Origin: a virus
Taxonomy: Duplodnaviria; Heunggongvirae; Uroviricota; Caudoviricetes
Reading direction: 5' to 3' (one strand)
IMG/VR virus record: IMGVR_UViG_2879731240_000002
Length of the DNA stretch: 26,245 bases
The notes below the pieces were generated by a model. That model was not told where the DNA came from. It did no database searches and saw only the letters and a list, made by a program, of their open reading frames with translations. Below, piece after piece: positions 5,267-5,908 of the stretch; position 1 is the stretch's first letter; every line of letters begins with the position of its first letter. Made by a program: the position numbers and the translations under genes.

Positions 5267-5325
5267 GTTGGAGTCATTACCAAGAAAGAGAAGGTAAAGA
5301 AGGTAAGTCCATACTGTCTCCACTA

Positions 5326-5350
5326 TAAAAAAACCGCCAATTTCTGGCGG
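5326..5350. terminator. Intrinsic terminator downstream of the lipoprotein-like gene
   Basis: Stem CCGCCA/TGGCGG (5334-5350) flanked by an A-run on the plus strand, so a U-run follows the hairpin on the minus-strand transcript; lies 9 bp after the stop of the 5359-5841 gene. Confidence 0.45.
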
Positions 5351-5358
5351 CTTATATA

Positions 5359-5841
5359 TTAATCATCATTAATATCTTTCATATTCAATTTGCAATTTTC
5401 GTAGGTCACTCCCGACTCGCCATTAACATTAACTCCAGCTCTGATATTCCCGTTTTCTTTTACATCTACAAAAAACTGGCCTCTTGGCATCTTGAACGCA
5501 AATGTAAAACCAACAGTATCTGAATCAAAATCATCATCTTTATATATTGGGATCAAAAATGTCATCGTCGCTGGTGATGCATTGTTTGCAAAATCAAATA
5601 CACCTATACTTTTGCCGAATTCATAAGAAGCTTTTCTCAATATAATCGCACCGCTGGCAGAAGGGGATGGGCACGATATCCTCAGTTGTCTGAATCCATC
5701 TGTATCCAAGTCAACGTCATTATCTGCAGATGTTTTAACGTTACTAATAAATCGTGAAACAATCTCCTCATTTGTTAGTATTTTCGCCTGAGCACAGCAA
5801 GAGGTTAATATTGCAACCGTCATTAAAAATGGCTTTATCAC
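5359..5841 (-). CDS. Hypothetical secreted protein or lipoprotein (160 aa), AT-rich orphan
   Basis: N-terminal signal peptide MIKPFLMTVAILTSCCAQA with a possible lipobox (LTSC) or AQA signal-peptidase site; own GGAG Shine-Dalgarno and own terminator; markedly lower GC than the adjacent tail genes. No family recognised. Confidence 0.5.
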   Translation of the reverse strand: MIKPFLMTVAILTSCCAQAKILTNEEIVSRFISNVKTSADNDVDLDTDGFRQLRISCPSPSASGAIILRKASYEFGKSIGVFDFANNASPATMTFLIPIYKDDDFDSDTVGFTFAFKMPRGQFFVDVKENGNIRAGVNVNGESGVTYENCKLNMKDINDD

Positions 5842-5908
5842 AAAACAAACTCCATTGTTAGCATGTTACGCGATAATTTTGCCTCATCTTTCACCACAAA
5901 AAAAGAAC

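Follow-up and report, generated by a model that had tools for sequence, protein, structure and literature searches.

What is the small AT-rich gene that stands between the tape-measure gene and an IS1 element at the broken end of a prophage tail module, and what may its product do? The question is raised by a 26,245-nucleotide stretch of viral DNA (IMG/VR record IMGVR_UViG_2879731240_000002; the whole stretch is referred to below as the window). Positions 5282–5908, the DNA from the end of IS1 to the stop codon of the tape-measure gene, hold one open reading frame (ORF) of 160 amino acids. The original prediction, made from the letters of the sequence, took this interval for an AT-rich, self-contained unit with its own terminator and an exported product, bordered by IS1, and in these points it was borne out. 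The unit is a moron-type accessory cassette of ca. 590 bp that comprises a leader, a single gene and an intrinsic terminator; as a moron it is an ordinary kind of element, and its cargo belongs to an uncharacterised family already present in databases. Cassette anatomy, accessory status, family-wide export signals and purifying selection are demonstrated in this analysis, and we regard the anatomy and the accessory and exported status, taken jointly, as very probably correct.

The cassette and its slot in related prophages

The ORF occupies positions 5359–5841 of the minus strand. It begins with a GTG codon (5841–5839), which is preceded, 8 nt upstream, by a GGAG ribosome-binding site (5853–5850), and ends with a TAA codon (5361–5359). 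The ribosome-binding site is part of an AT-rich leader of 67 nt (5842–5908, minus strand), and homology to prophages without the cassette breaks at about position 5918, at the tape-measure stop codon. The GC content of the ORF is 36.9%, whereas the tape-measure gene has 52.1% and the sheath/tube region 52.7%. Downstream of the ORF, a terminator scan reports a hairpin on the minus strand at 5327–5353, in which a GCCGCCA/TGGCGGT stem lengthened by A-U pairs (5353–5334) is followed by seven T residues extending to position 5327. The fold has an energy of −14 kcal/mol (z = −3.5 relative to dinucleotide shuffles), and a search of Rfam returned only sub-threshold matches, which were caused by the terminator. 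The strong hairpin and T-run had been described before; the distance of 9 bp from the stop codon given at that time has to be corrected, since the stem begins 5–7 nt past the TAA. Six diverged family copies (the window copy and five others) each carry a hairpin and T-run terminator of their own, with sequences that differ from copy to copy. The terminator is kept as a feature, not as a sequence.

Morons are defined as extra DNA of deviant GC content with its own promoter and its own terminator (PMC3594210). Judged as a moron in the Juhala/Hendrix sense, the window has extra DNA between genes that are adjacent in related phages, its composition is deviant, and it has its own terminator; the matter of the promoter is taken up below, where expression is weighed.

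The cassette occupies a fixed slot in phiP27/SfV-like (Mu-type) tail modules, with the tape-measure gene on one side and the DNA-circulation gene on the other. A megablast search of complete E. coli genomes found the entire interval from position 5282 on in 11 genomes, where the order is tape measure, hypothetical protein, DNA circularization protein and both flanking tail genes are intact. The copy in FDAARGOS_944, labelled as a hypothetical protein, is 100% identical to the window copy at the DNA level. The cassette had been thought to stand in place of further tail genes; in these genomes it lies between tail genes, and in the window itself 31 nt of the DNA-circulation gene survive. Conversely, in prophages with a near-identical tape-measure 3′ end, the DNA-circulation gene comes directly after the point where homology ends. 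The distance between the two tail genes is 15–24 bp in phiP27, SfIV and E300082 and ~600 bp when the cassette is present. The slot is empty in the complete genome records of the isolated phages phiP27 and SfIV.

The occupancy of the slot was followed in IMG/VR loci retrieved with the DNA-circulation protein, a close set of 29 relatives and a broader set of 76; an empty slot was seen as a gap of 18–62 bp. Among the close relatives, 20 slots were empty, seven held an intact copy of the ORF, one held a copy split by IS1 and one held an unrelated lipoprotein of 151 amino acids with an LAGC lipobox. In the broader set, 58 slots were empty and 13 contained cargo, which in 12 cases belonged to the PHROG 5586 family described below and in one case was the unrelated lipoprotein. 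The five remaining loci were uninformative (two without a tape-measure ORF, two apparently filled because of a split tape-measure gene and one with a 551-bp gap that has no ORF of at least 50 amino acids). Since the slot is empty in about three quarters of related prophages as well as in phiP27 and SfIV, the gene is an accessory rather than a structural one. The split copy (L014 2600–4000, identical to L050), in which IS1 interrupts the 160-codon ORF after about codon 30, indicates that the gene can be lost without obvious harm.

A Yersinia prophage, metagenomic contigs, phage vB_EcoM-720R4 and a prophage on an avian pathogenic E. coli (APEC) plasmid also have the cassette in this slot. In a metagenomic relative with a distant family member (L007 2387–2974), a HIRAN-domain gene lies between the tape-measure gene and that member and is a second cargo of the same slot. 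Two further distant members (L004 1581–2229 and L005 3728–4305) are found outside any tail operon, in accessory regions of putative phage-plasmids, where a toxin-antitoxin pair (Gp49/HTH and MazE/PemK, respectively) follows directly downstream, and near genes for IncFII RepA, ParA and a cI-like repressor. The window copy and five other copies located in the slot have a GC content of 34–37%, compared to 45–56% in their flanks. Pairwise identity of the ORF is not significantly correlated with that of the flanking genes (Spearman 0.19), so co-divergence with the tail genes is not supported, and one ORF allele is found beside tape-measure C-termini that are just ~50–59% identical. It follows that the cassette has been exchanged among tail modules.

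The different cargo of 151 amino acids (L018 1920–2375, plus strand; IMG/VR UViG_2189573020_000003) has a textbook lipobox, MKKALIILSCLFCLAGC↓D (the arrow marks the cleavage point here and below), in which Asp at +2 is a signal for retention in the inner membrane. It has no significant match in Pfam or PHROGs. The presence of this unrelated lipoprotein suggests that the slot collects exported proteins. A separate observation concerns the 720R4-type cassette (L003 6937–7000 and L008 5937–6000), in which a perfect inverted repeat of 8 bp, CCCTACTT-TAATC-AAGTAGGG, forms the start of the leader immediately past the tape-measure stop codon and may serve as an operator or fold as RNA.

Protein family, export signal and predicted fold

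The gene is not an orphan, as had been supposed. Its product matches PHROG 5586 (phrog_5586), a family without a described function, over its full length (E = 1e-88). A word-indexed search of 5.8 billion proteins retrieved nine clusters, and an exhaustive hidden Markov model (HMM) search of 1.84 billion representatives retrieved 19 with E below 1e-3. At least 1000 contigs from Shigella flexneri, S. sonnei and E. coli encode the identical protein, in every case annotated as “hypothetical” or “phage protein”, and relatives are present in Yersinia, Salmonella and phage vB_EcoM-720R4. WP_000594909 is the corresponding database entry. Profile searches of Pfam and NCBIfam with the ORF gave no matches, and a literature search on the accession and on the slot found nothing specific. 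Comparison with the Yersinia enterocolitica copy (74% amino acid identity) gave 1.6 synonymous (dS) and 0.15 nonsynonymous (dN) substitutions per site, i.e., dN/dS = 0.09. The ORF is under purifying selection and is a real gene. Near-identical alleles differ by few replacements, which are grouped in residues 20–48, the predicted N-terminal helix.

Codons 1–19 (5785–5841, minus strand) encode a predicted signal peptide, MIKPFLMTVAILTSCCAQA. All full-length family members have such a peptide, with the tripartite n-h-c organisation (a basic n-region and a hydrophobic core); its final AxA↓ falls in one alignment column in all of them, and MIKPFLMTVAILTSCCAQA↓KI of the window protein, for instance, aligns with MKKMFILLLAVGLPLNSFA↓KP of another member. 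In the window protein the signal-peptidase-I site is AQA↓K (residues 17–19), aligned with SFA↓K, ALA↓K, VFA↓K and others, and the small residues at −3 and −1 are those expected of a substrate of Sec and signal peptidase I.

The original prediction also raised the possibility of a lipoprotein, and here the outcome is divided. In this allele the LTSC lipobox, with Cys15 and K3, does fit a PROSITE PS00013-type rule and overlaps the AQA↓K site. However, LTSC or LISC with Cys15 is found only in Shigella and Yersinia copies, and 9 of 11 family signal peptides lack cysteine altogether and terminate, at the corresponding alignment position, in AxA↓K. The lipobox cysteine is thus not conserved among homologues, and the alignment rules out lipoprotein identity for the family as a whole. 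Because most of its signal peptides lack cysteine and end in AxA↓K, the family would be basically periplasmic, cleaved by signal peptidase I, and a lipid anchor would be confined at most to the Shigella/Yersinia clade. According to the established Lol sorting rule, lipoproteins with a residue other than Asp at +2 go to the outer membrane. The residue at +2 after Cys15 is Cys, and so, if the window protein is lipidated, outer-membrane sorting is predicted. The cellular location of the protein is in either case a predicted one.

The start of the Yersinia homologue (L006 5975–6003, contig JBRUQM010000038) deserves a comment. It is annotated as MMLISCC..., with an out-of-frame ATGAAAAAACC before it. 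One extra A in the A6 run of this copy yields MKKTYLLVFMMLISCC, a complete lipoprotein-type signal peptide with an MKK... start. The anomaly has two possible causes, a frameshift in the homopolymer or a sequencing error.

The mature protein is acidic (isoelectric point of about 4.6). Modelling by AlphaFold2 (AF2) with nine close sequences only gave a predicted local distance difference test score (pLDDT) of 48; distant members from the exhaustive HMM search were then added, and with 16 diverse members the pLDDT reached 84.3 and the predicted template modelling score (pTM) 0.77. This model comprises a helix (residues 24–41) followed by eight strands. Two cysteines, C57 and C150, are invariant in all full-length members and are placed by the model after strand 1 and within strand 8, respectively. 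Since strands 1 and 8 would be neighbours in a closed up-and-down barrel, a disulfide between C57 and C150 that closes the barrel is likely. Foldseek searches of the PDB and BFVD gave nothing below E = 0.03, with template modelling (TM) scores below 0.4, and a sequence profile search of the PDB returned only noise (E at least 0.09). The top fold matches, all weak (E ≥ 0.03), were calycin-like: MoaF-like proteins (4q51, 5hal), avidins, the Tp0751 lipocalin and fatty-acid-binding protein (FABP)/bile-acid binders. Designed barrels and the Cap15 barrel were further weak matches. The model thus points to a generic calycin-like barrel, in a family that does not detectably belong to any characterised group. 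The protein does not fit the eight-stranded outer-membrane barrels of the OmpX/Lom type, which are marked by a C-terminal aromatic beta-signal, long amphipathic strands and an absence of cysteines.

A truncated structural tail protein was rejected as an explanation of the ORF. Intact prophages contain the ORF at full length, phiP27, SfIV and most relatives lack it, and its product has an export signal, whereas a structural protein would be expected in all phages with this tail and would be assembled in the cytoplasm. The protein is not part of the virion.

The decayed prophage around the cassette

The host element is a decayed Shigella/E. coli prophage. Upstream of the cassette lies a complete tape-measure gene of the Mu/phiP27 type (5909–7858, minus strand; 649 amino acids; TIGR01760, E = 1e-104; PF10145), whose product is 98.2% identical to the tape-measure protein of phiP27, an Stx2e phage, over 100% of its length. 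On the other side, as seen from an alignment with the intact FDAARGOS_944 prophage, positions 5312–5282 (minus strand) are the opening 31 nt of a DNA-circulation gene (Mu gp43-like; ATG at 5312–5310), and the IS1 repeat starts directly after them. The IS1 element itself (4514–5281, plus strand, 768 bp) was recognised by its insA/insB ORFs and terminal inverted repeats (4514–4536 and 5259–5281). Its near junction falls in codon 11 of the DNA-circulation gene. Its far end adjoins a truncated IS600-like orfB (3654 to ~4513, minus strand), beyond which lies a tail-fibre assembly gene. Since the two junctions are unrelated, an IS1-mediated adjacent deletion appears to have taken out all baseplate genes. 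The truncation of the tail module in the window is a separate IS1 event, apart from the cassette, and because the start of the DNA-circulation gene survives and the loss of the baseplate genes is attributed to an IS deletion, the cassette is no substitute for tail genes.

A listed ORF of 344 amino acids at 3654–4688 was rejected as an artefact that runs from the orfB remnant into IS1. A second copy of IS1, in inverted orientation, is located at 12228–12995, inside the morphogenesis region of the prophage. At the tail-fibre end of the same remnant there is a full-length gene for an ipaH-type E3 ligase, an effector of the type III secretion system (1311–2954, plus strand), called IpaHe in 99.7%-identical genomes of E. 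coli/enteroinvasive E. coli, and alongside it a gene for a class I S-adenosylmethionine-dependent methyltransferase (327–995, plus strand).

Possible functions and known systems

The following explanation is favoured. The product would be exported via Sec, cut at AQA↓K and released into the periplasm; in the Shigella/Yersinia clade a lipidated Cys15 may instead tether it to the outer membrane, on the inner face. The mature product would be a small acidic eight-stranded beta-barrel behind one helix, with strands 1 and 8 probably stapled by the C57–C150 disulfide, and it would work in the cell envelope of the lysogen or of the infected cell. As a superinfection-exclusion protein that blocks DNA entry, it would meet incoming tail-tip or tape-measure proteins in the periplasm, a block analogous in logic to those of HK97 gp15, Ltp and T4 Sp. 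Exclusion is placed first because the family is the near-sole occupant of the slot in one tail module, because the gene adjoins the tape-measure gene as that of HK97 gp15 does, and because exported accessory proteins of prophages, where their roles are known, most often act in exclusion. The 12 of 13 filled slots that hold the PHROG 5586 family are compatible with a function tied to the Mu-type tail or its injection pathway.

Several points weigh against this explanation. No sequence or profile similarity to known exclusion, defence or inhibitor proteins was found. The PADLOC models of anti-phage defence matched no family at E-values up to 10, and searches with the profiles of known prophage envelope proteins (Cor, Bor/Iss, Lom/Ail, Llp and TraT) gave no match, PHROGs returning only phrog_5586; in PHROGs and Pfam alike Cor, Bor and Lom stayed unmatched, in agreement with the original prediction, which had recognised no exclusion or serum-resistance family. 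The occurrence of the same ORF allele with differing tape-measure alleles argues against tight co-evolution with the tape measure. Finally, a scan of positions 5200–6100 for consensus σ70 promoters gave no sites, no match to the σ70 consensus was found upstream of the ORF in four cassette versions (the window and three others), and the best −10-like candidate, TAACAT, picked by eye, has no −35 element. Since no σ70-like promoter was found in four versions, expression from the repressed prophage is unproven, and the ORF may be made only late in infection. On the other hand, a strong terminator ahead of essential baseplate genes would make sense only if some transcripts start without antitermination, and we infer that the cassette is transcribed independently. 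Taken together, a superinfection-exclusion role, argued by analogy, is possible, with the balance of probability against it. Serum resistance, the other role that the original prediction named for prophage lipoproteins, is likewise a conjecture. The explanation as a whole, in which this role is combined with the anatomy and the accessory and exported status, is tentative and falls somewhat short of even chances. A bolder version, in which PHROG 5586 would be a new periplasmic barrel family, lipid-anchored in some clades, that travels with Mu-type tails and blocks the entry of rival genomes by binding ejected tail-tip or tape-measure proteins, is a little less probable than the exclusion role in general. 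The family would then be a soluble exclusion factor of the periplasm, with a fold not previously linked to exclusion. We would rank the possible functions in the order of exclusion, then an enzyme inhibitor or immunity protein jointly with a late lytic helper, and last a binder of small ligands.

An inhibitor or immunity protein, periplasmic or lipid-anchored as PliC and MliC are, would shield the lysogen envelope from an external enzyme, for instance host lysozyme, a tail-associated muramidase of a phage or a peptidoglycan hydrolase delivered by a type VI secretion system or a bacteriocin. A small, acidic, exported protein with a predicted eight-stranded barrel and a conserved predicted disulfide would suit this role, as would the gut pathogens that are its hosts and the coexistence in one family of signal-peptidase-I and lipobox variants, which recalls PliC and MliC. 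A short motif, SASGA, is common to the protein and E. coli MliC, but SASG stands directly after the first cysteine, a position unlike that in MliC. Pfam MliC (PF09864) gave no match at E-values up to 1, comparison of the family profile with E. coli MliC by hhalign gave a probability of 7.6%, which comes from the signal peptide only, and BLASTP with MliC gave E = 39. The hhalign and BLASTP results rule out a relationship to MliC, and an inhibitor of this general kind is unlikely.

Equally unlikely, in our view, is a helper that is expressed late and serves the lytic cycle of the phage itself. Such a gene would share an antiterminated transcript with the tail genes, would not serve lysogenic conversion and might keep progeny off cell debris or already infected cells, as T5 Llp does. 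The position of the gene inside the late operon in the same orientation, the strong bond of the family to this tail module and the lack of a detected independent promoter agree with such a role. However, the conserved strong terminator right before essential baseplate genes is hard to explain unless some transcripts stop there, two family members are located outside tail operons, next to plasmid-maintenance and toxin-antitoxin genes, and the gene is missing from most relatives. A calycin-type binder of a small ligand (lipid, haem, vitamin or metal) that gives the lysogen a nutritional or stress benefit and no phage defence is the least probable by a clear step, for although the top fold matches are calycin-like barrels and the conserved loops CPxPSASG, MPRGQ and NGESG would lie at one barrel end, as inferred from the strand order of the model, no lipocalin or avidin signature motifs were seen, and a near-exclusive tie to one tail slot is unexpected for a metabolic gene.

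With superinfection exclusion kept in the first place, the interest of the cassette lies in a protein that is carried so widely by Shigella and E. coli, yet is hypothetical in every annotation. Phage exclusion or envelope protection, if true, would matter for the therapy and typing of Shigella with phages and would add a new fold to the periplasmic exclusion and inhibitor proteins. If neither role is true, this is one more uncharacterised moron.

Among known systems, PliC and MliC differ from the ORF protein in that the latter has an extra N-terminal helix, is ~40 residues longer and has its conserved motifs elsewhere, in line with the negative profile tests. Cor (of phi80, N15 and HK022) and T5 Llp are phage outer-membrane lipoproteins that block the FhuA receptor. 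Like them, the cassette product is a small exported accessory protein of an enterobacterial phage, and the lipobox of the Shigella allele, with its non-Asp residue at +2, predicts the outer membrane; unlike them, it does not match the Cor PHROG, most members of its family have no lipobox, and it is 2–3 times larger and a predicted barrel. From PHROG 5586 and WP_000594909 the ORF shows no difference and is a plain member. The closest parallel is HK97 gp15, an exclusion moron located in the tail operon by the tape-measure gene, absent from close relatives, of deviant GC content and acting in the envelope (PMC3594210). In both cases, a single small gene of deviant GC content has been added to the tail operon beside the tape measure and is missing in close relatives. 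However, HK97 gp15 is an inner-membrane protein whose gene lies upstream of the tape-measure gene, whereas the cassette product is a predicted Sec-exported barrel, and there is no sequence relationship between the two. For HK97 gp15 both function and promoter have been demonstrated, whereas the cassette is known here from its sequence.
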